Shown: positions 34,000 through 64,000 of the stretch, piece by piece | How the letters are laid out: every line of letters begins with the position of its first letter | Position numbering within the stretch: position 1 is the stretch's first letter | Assembly: GCA_045600585.1 (NCBI GenBank) | Contig: JAZRYE010000004.1 | Coordinates: forward strand, 60,437 to 124,436 | Direction of reading: 5' to 3' | Source of the DNA: Bacilli bacterium | GTDB lineage: Bacteria > Bacillota_I > Bacilli_A > RFN20 > CAG-826 | Length of the DNA: 64,000 bases | The notes under the pieces: generated by a model | The model's database searches: none | The model's input: the letters and a program-made list of their open reading frames with translations, nothing else | Told to the model about the DNA's origin: nothing | Program-made: the position numbers and the translations under genes

Positions 34000-35838
34000 T
34001 TAGTCCTTCTTTTCGATGGATTCATATCCTTCGATAATATCGCCTTCATGGATATCATTATATCCATCTAATAACATACCACATTCGAATCCAGCTTTAA
34101 CTTCTTTAACAGCGTCTTTAAAGCGTTGTAAGGAAGCTAATTTGCCTTCATAAGCAACAATGCCATTTCTTAAAATACGTACACCACCAGCGAGTTTAAT
34201 AACGCCGTCTGTAACCATACATCCAGCAATAGTGCCTAACTTAGAAACTTTAATTAATTGTCTAACTTCAGCTTGGCCAGTAACTTGTTCAACAAATGTT
34301 GGAGCGAGCATGCCTTTCATAGCAGCTTCAATTTCTTCAATTAATGCATAAATAATTCTATGTAAACGGATATCAATCTTTTCTTCTTCAGCTTTTGCTC
34401 TTGTTCTAGCATCAGGTCTTACATTGAAGCCATAAATAATTGCATTTGATGCACTTGCTAATAAGACATCACCTTCGGTGATAGCGCCGGAAGTTGCACG
34501 AACAACGTTAATTTTAACTTGTTCGTTTGATAATTTTTCAAGTGAAGATTTAACTGCTTCTGCAGAACCTGTAGAATCTGCTTTAATAATAACGTTAATT
34601 GATTGAGTTTCACCTTCATGAATTCTGTTGAATAAATCATCAAGTGACATAGCACTGGATTGATTTTTTTCTTTTGCTTCTTTAATTCTCTTACGTTTTA
34701 AAGCAATTTCACGCGCTTCACTTTCATCAGCGAAAGCCATGAAGTGATCGCCTGCTAATGGAACTTCACTCAAACCAATAATAGATACTGGAGTTGAAGG
34801 GGTTGCAGTTTGAAGAACTTTCTTAAATTCATTAGTCATTCTTCTTGCTTTACCATAAGAAGTACCGACAACTAAGAAGTCACCTTCTTTTAAAGATCCG
34901 TTTTGAATCAATAATGTTGCCTTTGGACCTTCATTTTTATCAAGTTTAGCCTCTAATACAGTGCCATAAGCATATCTATCAGGATTTGCTTTTAATTCTT
35001 TCATTTCAGCGACTAAAAGAATTGATTCTAATAAACCATCAATGTTGATTTTCTTTTTAGCAGAAATTTCAACAGCAATGACATCTCCACCATAGTCTTC
35101 AGTAACGATTTCGTGCGCTAAGAGTTCATTTTTAACTCTATGTGGATCTGCGCCTGGCTTATCAATTTTATTGATAGCAACAATAATTGGAACGCCTGCT
35201 GCTTTTGCATGGTCAATAGCTTCAATTGTTTGAGGCATAACACCATCATCAGCGGCAACAACTAAAACTACAATATCAGTGACAGAAGCACCTCTACTTC
35301 TCATAGCGGTAAATGCTTCGTGTCCTGGAGTATCGATAAATGTAATTTTTTGGCCATTGATTTCTTTTTGATATGCACCAATTTCTTGTGAAATACCACC
35401 AACTTCACCAGCAACAAGGTTGGAATTACGGATTGCGTCAATTAATGTTGTTTTACCATGGTCGACGTGACCCATGATAGTTACAACAGCAGGACGTGGT
35501 TTTAATTTTGAAGGATCATCATTTACTACGATGTCTTCAAAGTTTTCTGCTGCAACGATGGTTTTCTTTTGGAAGTCGTATCCAAATTCAAGACAGACAA
35601 GTCCGATTAATTCGTCATCAAGTACAGTATTGATAGTAATCATTTTTCCTTGTAAGAATAGGAATTTAATAATGTCACTAACTTGAATGTTTAATGACTT
35701 AGCAAGTTCAGAAACACTAATTGCACCAGTATAGATGAATACACCACCATTAACTTTGGATTTAACTTTATCAGCGCTTACTTTAGTTGAAACATTAGTT
35801 TCACGTTGATATGTATTCTTTTTATTCTTTTGTCCCAT
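34000..35838 (-). CDS. infB: Translation initiation factor IF-2 (short form)
   Basis: G-domain [22 protein letters not shown]; 612 aa with a short N-terminal region. Confidence 0.95.
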
Positions 35839-35855
35839 AGTTGCACCTCTTTTCT

Positions 35856-36104
35856 CTATAAGAGATTTAGTAATTCATCATAAATTGATTCATCAACATT
35901 TTCTCTTAAAGCTTTATTTAATAAATGTTTTTTCTTAGCGGTTTCAATAACCTTTTTATCTTTAGATAAATAAGCACCTCGACCTTTAAGATTTCCTTCT
36001 TTATCAACGAATATTCCAGAAGGAGTTTTTACTATGCGTAGTAATTCGCTTCGTAATTTAATCTCTCGAGTTACTAAGCACATTCTATTAACGATTTTTC
36101 CCAT
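35856..36104 (-). CDS. ylxR: YlxR/DUF448 family RNA-binding protein
   Basis: 82 aa; CLVTRE...GRGAYL motif; conserved between nusA and infB. No L7Ae/ylxQ gene follows it. Confidence 0.75.
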   Translation of the reverse strand: MGKIVNRMCLVTREIKLRSELLRIVKTPSGIFVDKEGNLKGRGAYLSKDKKVIETAKKKHLLNKALRENVDESIYDELLNLL

Positions 36105-36107
36105 CGA

Positions 36108-37802
36108 TTATTCTTCGTAGTAAGAATCGTATTCATCATAGTCGACATCTTCGTCTTCATATGATTCTTGTTCGTTTTCTTCTGCTTCCATTGCTTCAAG
36201 TTCTTCAGCAGTATAGATAGACATACGAGGACCTGTTTCAGAAACTTTAGTTGTTGTTTCTTCTTCCTCTTCTTCATCTTTCTTAGTTTTCTTATATGAC
36301 TTGCGTTGGCCTTTGTTCTTTTGTTTATTAGCTTCAGAAGCAAGGTTCTTTTCAAGTTCTTCTAATGAAGTTGTTGTCTTAACTTCACGTTTTTCTTCTT
36401 CAACTGGTTCTTCTACTTCTTCAACAGGAGCTTCGACGATAACTGGAGTTGGTTCAGAAACAACGATTTCTTCAACTTCATTTTCTTCTTCTTTATCTGC
36501 TGCAGCTTCAAGAGCTTCATCAACATCAGTTGTAACTTCGTCGTCATATACTCGATCTTGTGGAGCAACATAACCTTCAGCCATACCAGGTAATACTGTT
36601 TCTTTTGCTGATTCGTATTCTTTTGCTTTCTCTTCCATAAGTATCTTATTCTTAAGAGCTGCTTCTTCAGCTTGAAGTTCTGCAATTGATTTATATTCTA
36701 AGCCTAATTCAGCTGCTTCTGTTTCTGTCTTGATGTCAATCTTATAACCTGTTAATTTAACTGCTAAACGAGCGTTAACACCCTTTTTACCAATTGCTAA
36801 AGATAATGAATCATCTTGAACAATTGCAGTTGCATTACGAGAGTCAGAAGAGACGATAATACCAGAAACTTTTGCTGGTTTTAACGCTTCAATAATATAT
36901 AAACCTGCATTATCGCTATAAGCGATGATATCAATGTTCTCGTTGTTGCCAGAATTGCCTAATTGACCAACGATTTTTTGAATTCTAGAACCGTTAGGAC
37001 CAATACATGCACCTGCAGGATCAACGTTAGGGTCTTTAGAATAAACTGCAACCTTACTTCTTACGCCTGCTTCACGAGCACATCCTTTAATGACGATTGT
37101 TCCGTCATAGATTTCATGAATTTCTTCTTGGAATAATGCTGTTAAGAAACCTTCGTTTGCACGAGAGACAACAATGTGAGCGCCTGTTTTTGCTGAACTA
37201 GCAACATCACAAACGAATAATTTAATTGTTGAGCCATTTACAAATCTTTCATCACCAATCATTTCTTTCTTTGGTAAATAAACACTTGCTTTGCCAATGT
37301 TGACAGATACGCCTCTTTCTTCAACTTTTTCAACTTTGCCAGTAATCATTGTACCGATCTTGTCTTGGAATTGTTCTTTGAGGACTTCTTTTTCTGCTTC
37401 AACGAATTTTTGCTTCATGATTGATTTAACAGATAAAGCTAAAGATTTCTTCATATCATCGACGTTTGCGTGAACTTCGAATTCATCACCAACTTTGTAA
37501 TCTTTGTGGAATGGATCTTGTTCTTTTGCGTCTTCTGGAGAAATTTCAACTAAATCGTCTTCAACTTCTTCAACAACATTAATAACTTGCCACATATCAA
37601 TTGTGCCTTTATCAGTATCAATTGCTACGCGTACATCGATAGGTTTTAATGATTCGTCATTTACACTAGCACCACCTAAAAACTTTGTGTAAACACGTTT
37701 CAATGCTTCTTCTAATGCAGTAAGCACTGTTTGCTTGTTGATTCCTTTGCTAATCTCAATTTCTTCGAGAGCTTCGAGGAATGCTTTTGCGTCCATAGCC
37801 AT
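36108..37802 (-). CDS. nusA: Transcription termination/antitermination factor NusA with roughly 190-aa acidic low-complexity C-terminal extension
   Basis: NTD, S1 and two KH domains in the first ~370 aa. The tail is rich in E/D/T/Y (EEEEEETTTK...YEDEDVDYDEYDSYYEE); 564 aa. Confidence 0.9.
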   Translation of the reverse strand: MAMDAKAFLEALEEIEISKGINKQTVLTALEEALKRVYTKFLGGASVNDESLKPIDVRVAIDTDKGTIDMWQVINVVEEVEDDLVEISPEDAKEQDPFHKDYKVGDEFEVHANVDDMKKSLALSVKSIMKQKFVEAEKEVLKEQFQDKIGTMITGKVEKVEERGVSVNIGKASVYLPKKEMIGDERFVNGSTIKLFVCDVASSAKTGAHIVVSRANEGFLTALFQEEIHEIYDGTIVIKGCAREAGVRSKVAVYSKDPNVDPAGACIGPNGSRIQKIVGQLGNSGNNENIDIIAYSDNAGLYIIEALKPAKVSGIIVSSDSRNATAIVQDDSLSLAIGKKGVNARLAVKLTGYKIDIKTETEAAELGLEYKSIAELQAEEAALKNKILMEEKAKEYESAKETVLPGMAEGYVAPQDRVYDDEVTTDVDEALEAAADKEEENEVEEIVVSEPTPVIVEAPVEEVEEPVEEEKREVKTTTSLEELEKNLASEANKQKNKGQRKSYKKTKKDEEEEEETTTKVSETGPRMSIYTAEELEAMEAEENEQESYEDEDVDYDEYDSYYEE

Positions 37803-37815
37803 AATTTTTTACTCC

Positions 37816-38274
37816 TTAAAATTTAATTGCTAAACGGATTTTTGATATATTCGATTTTGTTATATCAACCAATTTTGTTCTACTCTTAATTTTGATTTCT
37901 AAGATAATATTTGTTTCATTTACTTCTTTTAATGTTCCTTCAAGAATGTTTTCTCCATCAATTGGATTAGTTAAATGAACATTAACATAAGAATTGACAT
38001 AATCATGTAATGCTTCAATTCTTAAAGGCTTTTCAGCACCTAAAGAAGAAATGTCTAATGTATAGGCGAAATCAAATGGATCAAGTTCATCAATATAAGC
38101 ATTTAATGCATTGCTAATTTCAACAATTGCTGCCATGTCAATAGGTTCAACACGGTCAACAATAACTTCTAAAGTCATTCCAGTCTTATCTTTACGATTC
38201 TTTATAGAAACAAGTTCGTAAGATAAATCTTTGAGCTTTTCACTAATTAAGTTTTCGAGTTGTTTTAGTTCCAT
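37816..38274 (-). CDS. rimP: Ribosome maturation factor RimP
   Basis: 152 aa; first gene of the rimP-nusA-ylxR-infB operon. Confidence 0.85.
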   Translation of the reverse strand: MELKQLENLISEKLKDLSYELVSIKNRKDKTGMTLEVIVDRVEPIDMAAIVEISNALNAYIDELDPFDFAYTLDISSLGAEKPLRIEALHDYVNSYVNVHLTNPIDGENILEGTLKEVNETNIILEIKIKSRTKLVDITKSNISKIRLAIKF

Positions 38275-38288
38275 AATACCTACCTATC

Positions 38289-38316
38289 AAAAACAAAGAG
38301 TGGCTTGCGGCCACTC
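38289..38316 (-). terminator. Terminator-like hairpin in the 5' leader of rimP-nusA-infB (candidate NusA-dependent autoregulatory attenuator; could also terminate the upstream licD transcript)
   Basis: Minus strand gagtggc-cgcaa-gccactc followed by an interrupted U-tract tttgttttt. It ends about 14 nt before the rimP ATG, so the rimP promoter must lie upstream of it. Confidence 0.5.
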
Positions 38317-38619
38317 AATTAAGAGTAAATTACTAACCTTGCGATTAGCATAATTATATTATCTTTAAATAAGATAAAAGTAAATATAATTTTAAGAAAA
38401 ATATAGATAACTATCCTAAAGGTCCATTATTAGTTTTGATAAAGATAAAAAAGCATTATCAAAAGAAAGGATTTCAACTTTATATGTGATTTCGTATGAA
38501 CTATATTTTCTTCTATCAGATTTTCTTATAATTTTTATTTAATTAATGAATAATAAATAGATTATAGGCTTATAAAGATATGATGATATAGCTATTATTC
38601 AAAGATTGAATTTTTATAT

Positions 38620-39507
38620 TTATTTTTCTTTATGGCGAAGATTAAATTTCTTTGCGTGACCTGCATGTCTTCTTTCAACCGGGAAAGGGTCGATCCATTT
38701 TTCTCCATCCCACTTACGAAGGCTTCTTTCACCATAACGAATTTTTGCAAATTCTTTAATACTATTAAAAGAATATATCATATGGCCTTCAAATTCATAT
38801 TCTTTAAACGGGAAGATAACCTCTCTAGGCCAAGATAAATTTACAACTGTATCGCTCCAATTCTGGAAAGGGATAATTACAGTTTGAGAAACAAAAGGCG
38901 AGTCTTTATATTTTTCTGCTACCTCTTTTTCAAAAGCTTTTAATTTCTTCTTCATTCCATATGGATGAATTCTTAAAATACCATCAGCAAAGCAATACCA
39001 CGGCATCATTCTTTTTGATTTCTTGATGAGCTTTTCATGTTCTTTTCTTTCTTCAGGAACACCCATAAAAGCACAGATATCAATGAAAAATCCGTGAGAT
39101 CCACATCTAGGAGGAAGAGTTAATTCGCTCGCTTCTTTGATATATGAATCTTTTAGTCTTAATTTCATTGTTGGAATAAGAACATTATATTTCTTGTTAT
39201 TCTCGTAACATTCCAAAACAAATTTAGGATTTAAATCATTTTTACAAGCTTCAACAATACGATTAATATCTTCATATTTAATGACAATATCTGCATCATC
39301 ATCCCAAGGGATGAATCCACTATAGTTATAGCAACCCAATGCACTACCAAAGCCTAATGCATATGGAATATCGTTTTTACGGCATATACGATCAAATTCC
39401 AAAACTAAATCGAGAATTATTTTATGTAATTCTTCGGTTGTACATAAATTTCCATCAGTGTCTTTACCGATTGGATATATAGTTTTATCAATAATTCTAT
39501 CTTTCAT
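38620..39507 (-). CDS. LicD-family phosphotransferase (phosphocholine/phospho-alcohol transferase, nucleotidyltransferase fold)
   Basis: Motif ALGFGSALGCYNYSGFIPWDDDADIVI (DxD), 295 aa, no TM segments. Confidence 0.75.
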   Translation of the reverse strand: MKDRIIDKTIYPIGKDTDGNLCTTEELHKIILDLVLEFDRICRKNDIPYALGFGSALGCYNYSGFIPWDDDADIVIKYEDINRIVEACKNDLNPKFVLECYENNKKYNVLIPTMKLRLKDSYIKEASELTLPPRCGSHGFFIDICAFMGVPEERKEHEKLIKKSKRMMPWYCFADGILRIHPYGMKKKLKAFEKEVAEKYKDSPFVSQTVIIPFQNWSDTVVNLSWPREVIFPFKEYEFEGHMIYSFNSIKEFAKIRYGERSLRKWDGEKWIDPFPVERRHAGHAKKFNLRHKEK

Positions 39508-39512
39508 AATAA

Positions 39513-40547
39513 TTAAAATGGATTAACAACGATTTGTCCGTCTTCACAGTTAACTGCTGTAGTTCCAGCTTTCGCAAGCCAGTTACTACCTCTTTTTATA
39601 CGCTTCCATTGGTCTTTTGTTCCTGAATAAACAATCTTAGTAAGTTTCTTACAGTTAAAGAATGCATTAAACTTAATAACTTTAACAGATGTTGGAATTG
39701 TAACAAGCTCTAAATTTAAAGCATTTGCAAAAGCAGCTTCGCCAATGACTTTAATTCCATTTGGAATATCCGCTACCTGAATTTGCATATTTTCAGCAAA
39801 TGAATGACCGCCAATAGATTTAATGTTACTTGGAATAGTTGTCAAACTTTCAGTAGTAACTTGTTCTGATGGATTTAATTTTTCTTCTTTGACTTCGTAA
39901 GCCATTGCATCTTTAATATAGACTTTGTGTTTAAAAGCGACAACATAAACAATTCCTAAAATTAACATTACTAAGAATGAAGCACATATTAAGATTATGT
40001 CGTAATTGTATAAACAATTAACAACTACACCTTCTAGTTGAGCTACAAAGGAAATAAAGAAACCTAAAGCAGTAAAAATACCGCAAAGAATAATTGTGAA
40101 AATGAATATTCCCCATGAATTTTTATATGGATTTTTATAGTGCTTTGATTTACCAAAAGCGATAAAAACAATACCATAAAATAAAGAAATTACTGCCCAA
40201 ATAATCATTAATGAATAAATGACTCCTGAGCCTAAAAAGAAATATGGGAAAACATATTCTATTAATCCACCATACATAGTTGAATGTTCATCCATAAAAT
40301 GGAAAAAATCCAAGATTTCAGATCTCATCGAAGAATTATTCTTAAATAGAAACATTCCTTGAATTAAATCTAGTCCTTTGATGTCGATTACAGTTGATTC
40401 AAATTTGATTGTTAAAACTGGAAATAAAAAATAAATTAAAACTGGAATTGAAGTCGCTAATAAAGATAGCAATCCAGTTAGAATTACTGCAAAGGAATAT
40501 CGATTAATGACTTTAACGCCATTTATTTCTTTTACTCTGTTACTCAT
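39513..40547 (-). CDS. Polytopic membrane protein with C-terminal BspA-type leucine-rich repeat (LRR_5) domain
   Basis: About 5 predicted TM helices in the first ~210 aa. The tail is an LRR (IPSNIKSIGGHSFAEN...IPNGIKVIGEAAFANALNLELVTIPTSVKVIKFNAFFNCKKL). Starts 52 nt after the DAHP synthase stop with no terminator in between. Confidence 0.6.
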   Translation of the reverse strand: MSNRVKEINGVKVINRYSFAVILTGLLSLLATSIPVLIYFLFPVLTIKFESTVIDIKGLDLIQGMFLFKNNSSMRSEILDFFHFMDEHSTMYGGLIEYVFPYFFLGSGVIYSLMIIWAVISLFYGIVFIAFGKSKHYKNPYKNSWGIFIFTIILCGIFTALGFFISFVAQLEGVVVNCLYNYDIILICASFLVMLILGIVYVVAFKHKVYIKDAMAYEVKEEKLNPSEQVTTESLTTIPSNIKSIGGHSFAENMQIQVADIPNGIKVIGEAAFANALNLELVTIPTSVKVIKFNAFFNCKKLTKIVYSGTKDQWKRIKRGSNWLAKAGTTAVNCEDGQIVVNPF

Positions 40548-40599: not shown

Positions 40600-41631
40600 T
40601 TAAAGCATGTTATAGATTTCATAGATAAGCTTTTCACTTTCTTCAAAACCTAAGCAACTATCAGTAATTGATTTACCATAAATCGCATCAGGTCCTGCTT
40701 TTTGACATCCGGATAATAAATATGATTCAATCATTAATCCTTTTACCATCTTCTTAATATCTGGATTAATTTTACAAGATTGAACGACCTCCAATGCAAT
40801 GCGATATTGTTCTTCTCCATGTTTACCACTATTTGCGTGATTTGTATCAACAATAACTGCAGGATTTTTGAAATGTTCTTCATTATAAATCTTGCTTAAG
40901 GCTAATAAATCTTCAAAATGATAATTAGGATAAGATTGTCCGTTTTGATCAACATATCCTCTTAAAATACAGTGAGTCAATGGATTACCAGAAGACTCAA
41001 CTTCCCAACCTCGATAGATAAATCTATGAGCAAGTTGAGCAGCACTTACAGAATTAAGCATTACTGTAATATCACCAGATGTAGGATTTTTCATGCCAAC
41101 TGGGATATCTAGTCCAGAAGCTGTTAAACGATGTTGCTGATCTTCAACGCTTCTAGCCCCGACTGCAACATAAGATAATAAATCTGATAAGTAACGATGG
41201 TTTTCACTGTAAAGCATTTCATCAGCACAGCTAAAACCAGCTTCTTGTAACGCTCTTAAATGTAACTTACGAATTGCAATTAAACCTTTTAACATATTTG
41301 GGTCTTGATTTGGGTCAGGCTGATGAAGCATTCCTTTATATCCAGCTCCTGTTGTTCTTGGCTTATTTGTATAAATGCGTGGACAAATTATGATTTTATC
41401 ATAAACTTTATCTTGAACTGCTCTTAACTTATTAATATATTCAATAACAGCGTCTTCTCTATCTGCAGAACAAGGACCAATTATCAAAAGAAATTTATTA
41501 CTTTTTCCAGATAAAATATCTTGAATATCTCTATCGTTTTTTTCTTTAATTTCTCTTAGTTCGTCACTCAAAGGATACATTTCTTTAATTTCCTGAGGAA
41601 CAGGTAATTTTCTTATAAATTTTATGTTCAT
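40600..41631 (-). CDS. aroF: 3-deoxy-7-phosphoheptulonate (DAHP) synthase, class I-alpha
   Basis: KFLLIIGPCS motif and KPRT...GAGYKGM block; 343 aa. Confidence 0.85.
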   Translation of the reverse strand: MNIKFIRKLPVPQEIKEMYPLSDELREIKEKNDRDIQDILSGKSNKFLLIIGPCSADREDAVIEYINKLRAVQDKVYDKIIICPRIYTNKPRTTGAGYKGMLHQPDPNQDPNMLKGLIAIRKLHLRALQEAGFSCADEMLYSENHRYLSDLLSYVAVGARSVEDQQHRLTASGLDIPVGMKNPTSGDITVMLNSVSAAQLAHRFIYRGWEVESSGNPLTHCILRGYVDQNGQSYPNYHFEDLLALSKIYNEEHFKNPAVIVDTNHANSGKHGEEQYRIALEVVQSCKINPDIKKMVKGLMIESYLLSGCQKAGPDAIYGKSITDSCLGFEESEKLIYEIYNML

Positions 41632-61633: not shown

Positions 61634-63748
61634 GTGAACGAGGTAATTTTTATGAAGATTAAACCGATAAAAGAATTAAGAGACACTAATAAAATTAGTG
61701 ATGAGTGTCATTCGATAGATGAACCAATATTTATTACCAAAAATGGTTATCAAGATTTAGTAATAATGTCACAAGATGTTTATGACAAAAATACATCAAA
61801 AATAACATATAAAGTTGATAGAAAGCCTTTAGAAATTAACGATGAGCAAAGCCAAAATATGGGTTTTGTCAAAGTCTCATGTGTTACACCTGAAATTAAA
61901 GTTAGTGATGTTAAATACAATGTGCAATTAATCAAGAATATTTTGGAAGAAGAAAACAAGAAACAGACAAATTTAGTTGTCTTTCCTGAGCTTTCTTTAA
62001 CTGGTTATACTTGCAGCGATTTATTTTTCCAACAAAAGTTGCTAAAAGAAACTGTTAACGGATTAAAAGAATTAGAAAATTATTCTAAGAATCTTGATCT
62101 CATATTCTTAGTTGGAGCTCCACTAGCAAAGGAAAATAAGCTATATAACTGTGCAATTGCAATTTGTCATGGCGAAATACTCGCTGTTATTGCTAAACAA
62201 TATATTCCTAATTACAACGAATTCTATGAAAAGCGTCATTTTGACAAAGTTCCAGATATAAATACAACTATAGAAATTGGTGGAAGAACCTATCCATTTG
62301 GAAACAAATTCATTTTAGTTAATAGAAAATGTTCATCTTTAAAAATTGGTGTTGAAATATGTGAAGATCTTTGGGTAGCAAATACTCCTTCTACTGGATT
62401 AGCATCAAATGGAGCAACTGTCATTTGTAATTTATCAGCTTCTAATGAGCTAGTTGGTAAAGCTTCTTATAGAAGAAACCTTGTAAGTATGACAAGTGCT
62501 AGACTTGTATGTGCTTATTTATATTGTTCAAGCGGCCTTGGTGAATCTTCTACTGATATGGTATTTTCTGGTCATAATATAATTTCTGAAAACGGCAAAA
62601 TTATTTCTGAAAGCGAATTATTTTCAAACGATACAATCACTACCGAAATCGATTTAGATGTCATTGAACAAGAAAGACATAAATTAAATGTTTTTGAGAA
62701 TAAAGAAGATACTAGATATGAATATATTTATTTTGATTTAAATGTTAATAAACCGGAATTAACTAGATTTTACCCTCCAAATCCATTTATTCCTGGCGGT
62801 AATAAGGTTGATCTAAATAGAGTGAATCAGATATTAAAAATCCAAGCTATGGGACTTTATCAAAGAATGCATGCAATTCATTGTAAAAAGGCTGTAATTG
62901 GCCTTTCCGGTGGTCTTGATAGCACGCTTGCTTTGATTGTAATTATTGAAGCATATAAGAAATTAGGATTAAGTAATGATAATATTATTGCTATCACTCT
63001 TCCTGCATTTGGCACAACTAGTAGAACATTAGATAATGTCAAAAAGTTATGTTCTAATCTAAATATTCCACTTAGAGAAATAAATATTTCTAAATCAGTA
63101 AATCAACATTTAGAAGACATCGGACATTTAGAAGGTAACTTCAATAACGCCTATGAAAATGCACAAGCTAGAGAAAGAACACAAGTTCTAATGGATGTCG
63201 CAAACGATGTTGGCGGCATAGTTATCGGTACTGGTGACTTATCTGAATTAGCACTTGGTTGGTGTACATATAATGGCGATCAAATGAGTATGTACGGAGT
63301 TAACTGTTCTATTCCAAAAACTCTTGTTAAATATTTGGTTCAAGGTTATGCCTTACAACATGACGAAATCAAAGAAGAATTATTCGATATTTTAGATACC
63401 CCTATTTCTCCTGAACTTATTCCAGCTAATGATGATAAGATTTCACAAAAAACTGAAGATATCATTGGTCCTTATGAATTACACGACTTCTTCTTATACC
63501 ACTTTATTAGATATAATCTAGAACCTAAAAAAATCTTCGAATTAGCGTGTTATGCATATAAAGATAAATATGATAAAGAAACAATCCATAAATGGTTGAC
63601 TTTATTTATAAAAAGGTTCTTTTCAAATCAATTTAAAAGAAGTGCGATGCCTGATGGAGTAAAAGTTGGAACAGTTTCCGTTTCTCCTCGTGGTGATCTA
63701 AGAATGCCAAGCGATGCTTCTAACTATACATTCTTATTCGATTTATAA
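61634..63748 (+). CDS. nadE: Glutamine-dependent NAD(+) synthetase (N-terminal nitrilase/CN-hydrolase domain + C-terminal NadE domain)
   Basis: CN-hydrolase E-K-C triad region (FPELSLTGY...CEDLW), PP-loop SGGLDS in the C-domain; 704 aa. Confidence 0.9.
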   Translation: MNEVIFMKIKPIKELRDTNKISDECHSIDEPIFITKNGYQDLVIMSQDVYDKNTSKITYKVDRKPLEINDEQSQNMGFVKVSCVTPEIKVSDVKYNVQLIKNILEEENKKQTNLVVFPELSLTGYTCSDLFFQQKLLKETVNGLKELENYSKNLDLIFLVGAPLAKENKLYNCAIAICHGEILAVIAKQYIPNYNEFYEKRHFDKVPDINTTIEIGGRTYPFGNKFILVNRKCSSLKIGVEICEDLWVANTPSTGLASNGATVICNLSASNELVGKASYRRNLVSMTSARLVCAYLYCSSGLGESSTDMVFSGHNIISENGKIISESELFSNDTITTEIDLDVIEQERHKLNVFENKEDTRYEYIYFDLNVNKPELTRFYPPNPFIPGGNKVDLNRVNQILKIQAMGLYQRMHAIHCKKAVIGLSGGLDSTLALIVIIEAYKKLGLSNDNIIAITLPAFGTTSRTLDNVKKLCSNLNIPLREINISKSVNQHLEDIGHLEGNFNNAYENAQARERTQVLMDVANDVGGIVIGTGDLSELALGWCTYNGDQMSMYGVNCSIPKTLVKYLVQGYALQHDEIKEELFDILDTPISPELIPANDDKISQKTEDIIGPYELHDFFLYHFIRYNLEPKKIFELACYAYKDKYDKETIHKWLTLFIKRFFSNQFKRSAMPDGVKVGTVSVSPRGDLRMPSDASNYTFLFDL

Positions 63749-63772
63749 AATAAAAAGCGGTTTAGTCCACTT

Positions 63773-64000
63773 TTACTTTGCAAATAACATCATATTGTCT
63801 TTAAATTTTCTAAAGCCAATCGATTCAAAAGCTTTTATATGCTCACCACTATTTAAAATTAAATAGATGTTTTTATTTGAATATTCATTTTCAATTTCAA
63901 GTAGAGCTTGGTTAATCAATATTCCTAGATAATTATCTAATTTAAATTGTTCATCCATTTCATATGAAATAAATATATCTGTTTTTTTATTTTCTAATTT
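63773..64000 (-). CDS. C-terminal fragment of an unidentified protein (ORF continues in-frame beyond the right window edge)
   Basis: The tool reports 63773-63958, but the upstream in-frame codons (…KLENKKTDIFISYE-MDEQ…) run to position 64000 without a stop. No diagnostic motif. Confidence 0.3.
   Translation of the reverse strand, partial: KLENKKTDIFISYEMDEQFKLDNYLGILINQALLEIENEYSNKNIYLILNSGEHIKAFESIGFRKFKDNMMLFAK

Follow-up and report, generated by a model that had tools for sequence, protein, structure and literature searches.

A hairpin encoded directly upstream of rimP on the minus strand of a 64-kb stretch of DNA from a Bacilli bacterium (contig JAZRYE010000004.1 of assembly GCA_045600585.1) probably serves as the intrinsic terminator at the core of an attenuator of transcription, located in the 5' leader of the rimP-nusA-ylxR-infB operon. 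We refer to the whole 64-kb stretch as the window and give all coordinates as window positions; the element is read on the minus strand. The hairpin is conserved among relatives, lies in what is predicted to be a promoter-proximal leader, is specific to rimP, and resembles the published attenuators called rimP-leaders. Judged by its sequence, the element is a member of this known family, which was published in 2010, and carries accessory structures specific to its lineage; the idea of such an attenuator is not new. We give this reading, family membership included, a probability of roughly 0.7.

The minus-strand leader reads ...uuuACUCUuaauuGAGUGGCcgcaaGCCACUCuuuguuuuugauagguagguauuAUG and contains the stem-loop GAGUGGC-CGCAA-GCCACUC (38298-38316). 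Its arms, GAGTGGC (38316-38310) on the 5' side and GCCACTC (38304-38298) on the 3' side, enclose the loop CGCAA (38309-38305), and the stem is followed by an interrupted U-tract, UUUGUUUUU (TTTGTTTTT in DNA; 38289-38297, minus strand). The U-tract is separated from the rimP start codon (ATG at 38274) by 14 nucleotides, gataggtaggtatt, and the end of the stem lies 23 nucleotides from the ATG. The initial annotation of this DNA had described the stem, loop, U-tract, and spacing in the same terms, and its description is borne out both by direct reading and by a terminator consensus scan; the relatives discussed below carry corresponding hairpins. Generic criteria for an intrinsic terminator are a G+C-rich stem of at least 5 base pairs, a loop of 3 to 8 nucleotides, and at least five U residues in the eight nucleotides after the stem. 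The hairpin qualifies, with seven pairs (five of them G-C), a loop of five nucleotides, and the tail TTTGTTTTTG. It is the sole minus-strand terminator-like site that the scan found within 37700-39000. Its opposite strand lacks a T-run, so the site is unidirectional. A Shine-Dalgarno-like sequence, AGGUAGG (38279-38285, minus strand), is situated 3' of the terminator and is not sequestered by it; relatives have AAGGAG or GGGAG at this position.

Folded in isolation, the hairpin has an energy of -10.8 kcal/mol, and the median for relatives is -13.3 kcal/mol. NusA-dependent terminators are reportedly suboptimal, with a weak hairpin, an interrupted U-tract, or both. The initial annotation had assigned both properties to this element; the interrupted U-tract stands, but the hairpin is moderately strong rather than clearly weak.

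Chance does not account for the hairpin, whose significance comes from conservation. The comparison set consists of 80 related loci with RimP proteins 45-69% identical, which makes 81 leaders when the window is included. By its RimP homologues, the window groups with many uncultured rumen and gut bacteria known from metagenome-assembled genomes and labeled "Bacilli bacterium" or Erysipelotrichaceae. An alignment of rimP leaders, which the initial annotation had proposed as a check, finds a terminator-like hairpin with a U-tract in 80 of 80 related loci, always 14-27 nucleotides 5' of the rimP start. Most loci share the core AAGAGTGGCC...GCCACTCTTTGTTTTT, and the near-invariant part in most of them is AAGAGUGGCC-loop-GCCACUCUUUGUUUUU. 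The 9-nucleotide U-tract UUUGUUUUU, including its G, directly follows the stem in 52 of the 81 leaders. Among 59 distinct sequences, five of the nine stem pairs never vary and only one covaries; the lower stem, AAGAGUG/CACUCUU, is invariant in sequence. The invariance of the lower stem and of the G in the U-tract points to recognition by a factor rather than to a generic terminator. Such an invariant lower stem is unusual for a terminator, and its conservation in these alignments suggests that the sequence itself is recognized.

Six relatives (L063, L066-L068, L071, L079) have a wholly different stem, GAUGCCU/AGGCAUC, followed by the tail UAUUUUUUU, within the same architecture.

Two covariance models were used to search for further copies of the leader. 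The first, R1, was built from a hand-checked seed with a hand-specified structure. The second, R2, has 68 positions and was built from relatives only, the window being left out to avoid circularity. A plain MAFFT alignment analyzed with RNAalifold had yielded only six invariant terminator pairs and misaligned P1, a second hairpin described below, and was replaced by the hand-specified structure and covariance models. R1 has only one match in the 64-kb window, which is the rimP leader (67.5 bits). R2 matches the same leader at 38287-38352 (minus strand) with 59.1 bits and an E value of 4.8e-11, and the matches of the two models define the extent of the leader motif. Across 545 kb of loci, each sense-strand match to R1 or R2 sits directly 5' of rimP.

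R2 also has a second match in the window, at 63744-63820 on the minus strand (21 bits, E value 0.03), which was rejected as a second copy of the leader and is an ordinary terminator. This hairpin, AAAGUGG-ACUAAA-CCGCUUU followed by UUAUUUU, comes after a short open reading frame (ORF) at 63773-63958 (minus strand), which converges on a 704-amino-acid plus-strand ORF ending at 63748.

A second hairpin, P1, is found 5' of the terminator. In the window, it has the sequence GCUAAUC-GCAA-GGUUAGU (38332-38349, minus strand), with seven to eight pairs and a GNRA-type loop, as seen in nascent-RNA folds and in the alignment. All eight of its pairs are changed on both sides among relatives, and 95% of cells are paired in the model-fitted alignment. 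For P1 and the terminator taken together, the covariation score is 0.40, compared with 0.12 for shuffles and 0.02-0.07 for slid controls; fitting to the model inflates it somewhat. Nascent-RNA folding, an independent prediction, also yields P1 in nearly all raw leaders. The most distant clade (L062, L065, L069, L070, L072, L074, L075, L078, L080) has, in place of P1, a longer conserved element of the type GCGUGGAAGAUCCUAGAUAGGCUCCGCG, which lies about 40-90 nucleotides 5' of rimP and forms an extended hairpin that contains an internal loop; this element has no Rfam match in L069.

A predicted promoter is typically located immediately 5' of P1. Sequences resembling sigma-70 promoters, with at least 9 of 12 matching positions and spacers of 16-18 nucleotides, end 2-8 nucleotides 5' of P1 in 36 of 44 analyzable relatives. 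The terminator is then about 35-50 nucleotides into the predicted transcript. This predicted promoter position in relatives would place the terminator inside the leader and supports the initial annotation, which had argued that the hairpin must be transcribed as part of the leader. Direct reading of the window reveals a candidate -10 element, TAATAT (38361-38356), that overlaps a perfect TATAAT (38358-38353), so that the candidate spans 38353-38361 on the minus strand. Seventeen nucleotides upstream of TAATAT is a candidate -35 element, TTTACT (38379-38384, minus strand), whose counterpart in L081, a relative with 88% RimP identity, is TTTACA. The best-supported -10 is thus 37-45 nucleotides upstream of the hairpin, and not 60-80 nucleotides further upstream as the initial annotation had it. 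The rimP transcription start site (TSS) is predicted at about 38349, give or take 3 nucleotides, which would give a leader of about 75 nucleotides.

Close relatives delimit the functional unit. The promoter and leader together form a conserved block at 38275-38393 (minus strand), which differs at only 2 of 119 positions from L082, a relative with 98% RimP identity; the distal spacer differs at 31 of 226. To judge from this comparison, the block is under purifying selection. In L081, the intergenic region is only 112 nucleotides long, corresponds to the promoter-plus-leader block, and starts just upstream of the -35 element.

Between this block and licD, the next gene upstream, the window has a very AT-rich spacer of about 226 nucleotides (38394-38619, minus strand) that is missing from L081. 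Compared with L082, 14% of spacer positions differ, versus 1.7% in the adjoining leader. Structure in the spacer, examined over 276 nucleotides, is not significant against shuffled sequences (z = -0.52), and the spacer has the look of an insertion or of filler that evolves fast.

Which gene precedes rimP varies among loci. Only 24 of 80 loci have licD there; elsewhere its place is taken by other genes, of 260-950 amino acids. At 13 loci, the closest ORF on that side lies on the opposite strand, and the hairpin is kept in all 13. Since its neighbor changes from locus to locus and can be divergent, the element belongs to rimP. Conservation, promoter position, and variable synteny together rule out a chance hairpin.

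The rimP-leader has been described as the most ubiquitous bacterial attenuator, a terminator in the 5' untranslated region (UTR) of rimP-nusA-infB operons (Naville & Gautheret 2010, Genome Biol 11:R97). It has a G-rich 5' arm and a C-rich 3' arm with the unusually conserved signature GGGc...gCCC, followed by a stretch of U residues, and it is located 4-130 nucleotides from the gene, with no visible antiterminator (Naville & Gautheret 2010). Its listed representatives include AGAGTGGG..CCCACTCTTT in Clostridia and staphylococci, where the 3' arm reads CCC(A/G)CTCTTT, GAGTGAGC..GCTCACTC in lactobacilli, and GGAGTGG..CCACTCC in Fusobacterium (Naville & Gautheret 2010). The window element occupies the 5' UTR of the same operon, and its stem and U-tract, 23 and 14 nucleotides from the ATG, fall within the published range. 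It has the same G-rich and C-rich arms, the same U stretch, and a stem conserved beyond the needs of pairing, and the core GAGUGG...CCACUC is common to the window and to the Fusobacterium, Clostridia, Staphylococcus, and lactobacilli entries. This shared core and U-tract bear out the view of the initial annotation that the element has the right position and shape for an attenuator of this operon. The window signature, in contrast, is GGCc...gCC, one G-C pair short of the published one. Also, the window lineage adds the covarying P1 and a UACUCU box, whereas the published set lacks such complementarity. The absence of an antiterminator, a trait of the published family, is qualified in the window lineage by a candidate antiterminator helix, P2, which does not reach significance in the window (p = 0.31) and is missing from the published set.

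Related regulation has been observed or proposed in other bacteria. Termination in the 5' leader of the Bacillus subtilis nusA operon is stimulated by NusA, and the operon is thereby autoregulated (J Bacteriol 2025 review, PMC12288461, citing Mondal 2016). That terminator (ylxS is the B. subtilis name of rimP) is in the leader of the same operon, and the same NusA logic is proposed here. The window U-tract is interrupted by a G at its fourth position, and this interruption is conserved in relatives. The B. subtilis leader, however, is about 180 nucleotides long (Naville & Gautheret 2010), as opposed to about 75 in the window. Also, NusA dependence is experimental in B. subtilis, whereas for the window element it is a proposal, and the likeness of the two leaders is one of position and proposed logic. 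In Streptococcus agalactiae, RNA-seq revealed short and long RNAs that start at one TSS and diverge at a terminator in the rimP-nusA-infB leader (Rosinski-Chupin et al. 2015, BMC Genomics 16:419). That leader is also short, with the terminator 31 nucleotides from the TSS, NusA feedback was proposed for it, and it too lacks similarity to Rfam families; its hairpin differs in being of the type GAGGCGG...CGCCTC, and no P1 or box is described. NusA feedback in Escherichia coli is an older precedent, cited by both Naville & Gautheret (2010) and Rosinski-Chupin et al. (2015).

These comparisons suggest how the leader might work. We infer by homology that termination occurs in it, where transcription starts, and that NusA takes part, and the roles of P1 and the box are likewise proposals. 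RNA polymerase would start at about 38349 from the sigma-70-type promoter (-35 at 38384-38379, -10 at about 38361-38353). P1 would fold first in the nascent RNA, after which the polymerase would meet the stem-loop at 38316-38298 and UUUGUUUUU. Some polymerases would terminate there and release an RNA of about 55-60 nucleotides, and others would continue into rimP-nusA-infB. The terminating fraction would most likely be set by NusA, through stimulation of hairpin-dependent pausing and termination, and the operon would thus limit its own output of NusA by negative feedback. Pairing of the UACUCU box with the base of the terminator stem on its 5' side may delay completion of the hairpin and in this way make termination dependent on a factor. 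The proposal of a candidate NusA-feedback attenuator, put forward in the initial annotation, is supported insofar as the parts of it that can be checked computationally hold.

Several observations weigh against this interpretation. For the source organism, transcription start, 3' ends, and efficiency of termination are all predictions, and the window promoter matches the sigma-70 consensus at 8 of 12 positions at best (perfect TATAAT, weak -35). At -10.8 kcal/mol the hairpin is not clearly weak, so its shape alone does not imply NusA dependence. RNA folding, also proposed in the initial annotation, recovers the hairpin, but the 76-nucleotide leader as a whole shows no excess stability over shuffled sequences in single-sequence folding (z = -0.29). 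Neither leader nor spacer is more stable than shuffles, so folding energy alone is not evidence for the element. Searches against Rfam 15 gave no relevant match to the leaders of the window, L031, or L069 at an E value of up to 10, or to 20 loci at the gathering score. A rimP-leader model presumably exists in Rfam, and no Rfam model matched the element, so family membership is argued from the published sequence list. Finally, the effector could be another product of the operon or a complex of Nus factors instead of NusA.

An alternative, which we consider unlikely, is that the leader works as a switch between two states. NusA, NusB/S10, or another protein would bind the box and its linker, possibly as part of a nut-like site made up of P1 and UACUCUUUAACAA, and would thereby select either the terminator or the antiterminator P2. 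The UACUCU box (UUACUCU in the window; 38322-38328, minus strand) is located between P1 and the terminator and is near-invariant in the main clade. By pairing with GAGUGG in the 5' arm of the terminator, to which it is complementary, it could form P2 as a competing helix. P2 forms in nearly all leaders in nascent-RNA folds, and a contiguous-helix test gives p<0.05 for 31 of 67 leaders, where about 3 are expected, and p<0.01 for 10 of 67. Where subclades differ in their terminator bases, the boxes differ to match (GCAUCAUU/AAUGAUGC, UCUUACU/AGUAAGA, UCUCAUA/UAUGAGA), and single changes within the box are compatible with G-U pairing. The P2 helix of the window, however, consists of four Watson-Crick pairs plus two G-U pairs and gives the nonsignificant value already mentioned in the same test. 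The number of arm bases paired upstream does not discriminate, at 6.2 versus 4.4 in shuffles. Column covariation is absent from P2, a test that is uninformative because both sides are invariant. P2 is lacking in the most distant clade and in L034. Nor is it enriched among 66 published rimP-leaders of other phyla, 6 of which reach p<0.05 when 3.3 are expected. The pairing thus has moderate support across the lineage, and P2 is a plausible but not established feature of it.

The clearest antiterminator-like arrangement of the set occurs in L063, L066, L067, L068, L071, and L079. These leaders have a strong upstream helix of 8-9 base pairs, GCAUCAUU...AAUGAUGC, in which most of the 5' arm of the terminator is sequestered.

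The box and linker might also be read as a boxA. In L002, L004, L010, L011, L016, and L020, which represent one subclade, they have the sequence UACUCUUUAACAA, which is identical at 12 of 13 positions to the E. coli rrn boxA, UGCUCUUUAACAA. Nine of 68 leaders match at least 9 of the 10 specified positions of the gamma-proteobacterial consensus GYTCTTTAANA, against 0.41 expected. P1 followed by the box also resembles the order of boxB and boxA in rrn leaders. These likenesses would fit a switch operated by Nus factors. They also suggest a more specific and quite improbable idea, namely, that the leader mimics an rRNA antitermination signal fused to a terminator, with P1 corresponding to boxB and UACUCU(UU)AA(C/U)AA to boxA plus spacer. 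The UACUCU(UU)AA(C/U)AA stretch would then be a binding site for NusB/S10 and the NusA KH domains, and the same box could pair with the terminator 5' arm, so that the choice between antiterminator pairing and termination would fall to free Nus factors on the nascent box. If this is true, the whole Nus complex would control the nusA operon.

A precedent of this kind is available in the suhB, rpsJ, and nusB leaders, in which BoxA and Nus factors mediate autoregulation through NusB/S10, inhibition of translation, and Rho (Baniulyte et al. 2017). As would be the case here, a Nus-factor gene is controlled via an RNA element in its own leader. Those systems, in contrast, do not act through an intrinsic terminator, and the window box matches the consensus poorly. 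A survey limited to gamma-proteobacteria found no boxA upstream of nusA (Baniulyte et al. 2017). Among the 68 leaders there is no perfect match to the boxA consensus, and the window reaches 6 of 10 at best, in a comparison made with the gamma-proteobacterial consensus and the E. coli rrn boxA. Moreover, any complement of AAGAG necessarily resembles the CUCUU of boxA, and the 12-of-13 likeness may be due to chance, given this constraint.

It is very unlikely that the hairpin is merely the 3' terminator of the upstream aro-LRR-licD unit, with rimP expressed from residual read-through and no regulatory role. No further terminator-like site follows licD in the 345-nucleotide gap, which is also without significant structure. 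Many relatives have a co-directional upstream gene that ends only 100-180 nucleotides before rimP, which makes the hairpin the first terminator met. The initial annotation had suggested that the hairpin may also end the licD transcript, and this remains compatible with the data as a secondary function; as the main role, it conflicts with the variable identity of the upstream gene. The 13 loci with an opposite-strand neighbor include real-sized ORFs in L017, L062, L063, L066-L068, L071, and L079, where the hairpin is kept, and a conserved, predicted promoter lies between the upstream gene and the hairpin. An invariant stem shared with rimP leaders of other phyla is also unexpected for a generic 3' terminator. 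Termination of the upstream gene as the sole role is rejected in view of conservation, promoter position, and variable synteny.

Also very unlikely is a post-transcriptional role, in which the stem-loop would be a protein operator or stabilizer that, for example, lets RimP, IF2, or a ribosomal protein feed back on translation or protects the mRNA 5' region, with the U-run acting as a ribosome standby site or enhancer and not as a termination signal. In favor of this, the stem-loop keeps its sequence far beyond the needs of base pairing, it lies 14-27 nucleotides from the start codon and immediately 5' of the Shine-Dalgarno sequence, and RimP was also weighed as an effector, with NusA favored, by Naville & Gautheret (2010), but the geometry of hairpin and U-tract fits an intrinsic terminator in every relative, the Shine-Dalgarno sequence is left free, termination at the homologous leader site was seen by RNA-seq in S. 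agalactiae (Rosinski-Chupin et al. 2015), and the mechanism reported for B. subtilis is NusA-stimulated termination (PMC12288461).

The regulated operon, for which an attenuator remains the preferred reading, extends from 38274 to 34000 on the minus strand. On the basis of ORFs and Pfam matches, which agree with the gene order given in the initial annotation, it consists of rimP (RimP_N/RimP_C; 37816-38274), nusA (NusA_N/KH; 36108-37802), ylxR (YlxR; 35856-36104), and infB (IF-2; 34000-35838). The gap between ylxR and infB is 17 nucleotides (window 35838-35856, minus strand). The gap before rimP is an AT-rich, non-coding region, as originally described, and covers 345 nucleotides (38275-38619) with 22% G+C. 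Upstream of it on the minus strand, Pfam matches identify licD (LicD; 38620-39507), a gene for a BspA-type LRR protein (39513-40547), and a DAHP synthase gene (40600-41631), with prephenate dehydrogenase and EPSP synthase genes further upstream. In the 64-kb window as a whole, no match to any Rfam family attains the gathering score, and this includes rRNA, riboswitches, and leaders; there was no separate scan for tRNAs.

The NusA protein of the window has 564 amino acids. Its C-terminal part of about 190 amino acids (36108-36680, minus strand) is a long, highly acidic, low-complexity tail, which follows a core of N-terminal domain, S1, KH1, and KH2, contains runs of E and D, and ends in EDEDVDYDEYDSYYEE. 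We know of no comparable acidic tail in B. subtilis NusA. If NusA senses its own leader, then this tail could matter, as do perhaps the AR domains of E. coli NusA.

The findings establish no new principle. Their interest lies in the operon, which encodes core factors of transcription (NusA), translation (IF2), and ribosome assembly (RimP), whose dosage must track growth. The rimP-leader attenuator would extend to a large group of Bacilli from gut and rumen, uncultured and without an experimental system, in which its sequence is near-invariant. Because these leaders are missed by current Rfam, the R2 model and about 80 aligned examples could serve for annotating the leader in metagenome-assembled genomes. 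The combination of P1 and the box may also provide a compact natural variant, of about 75 nucleotides, for studying how competing upstream pairing acts at a factor-dependent terminator.

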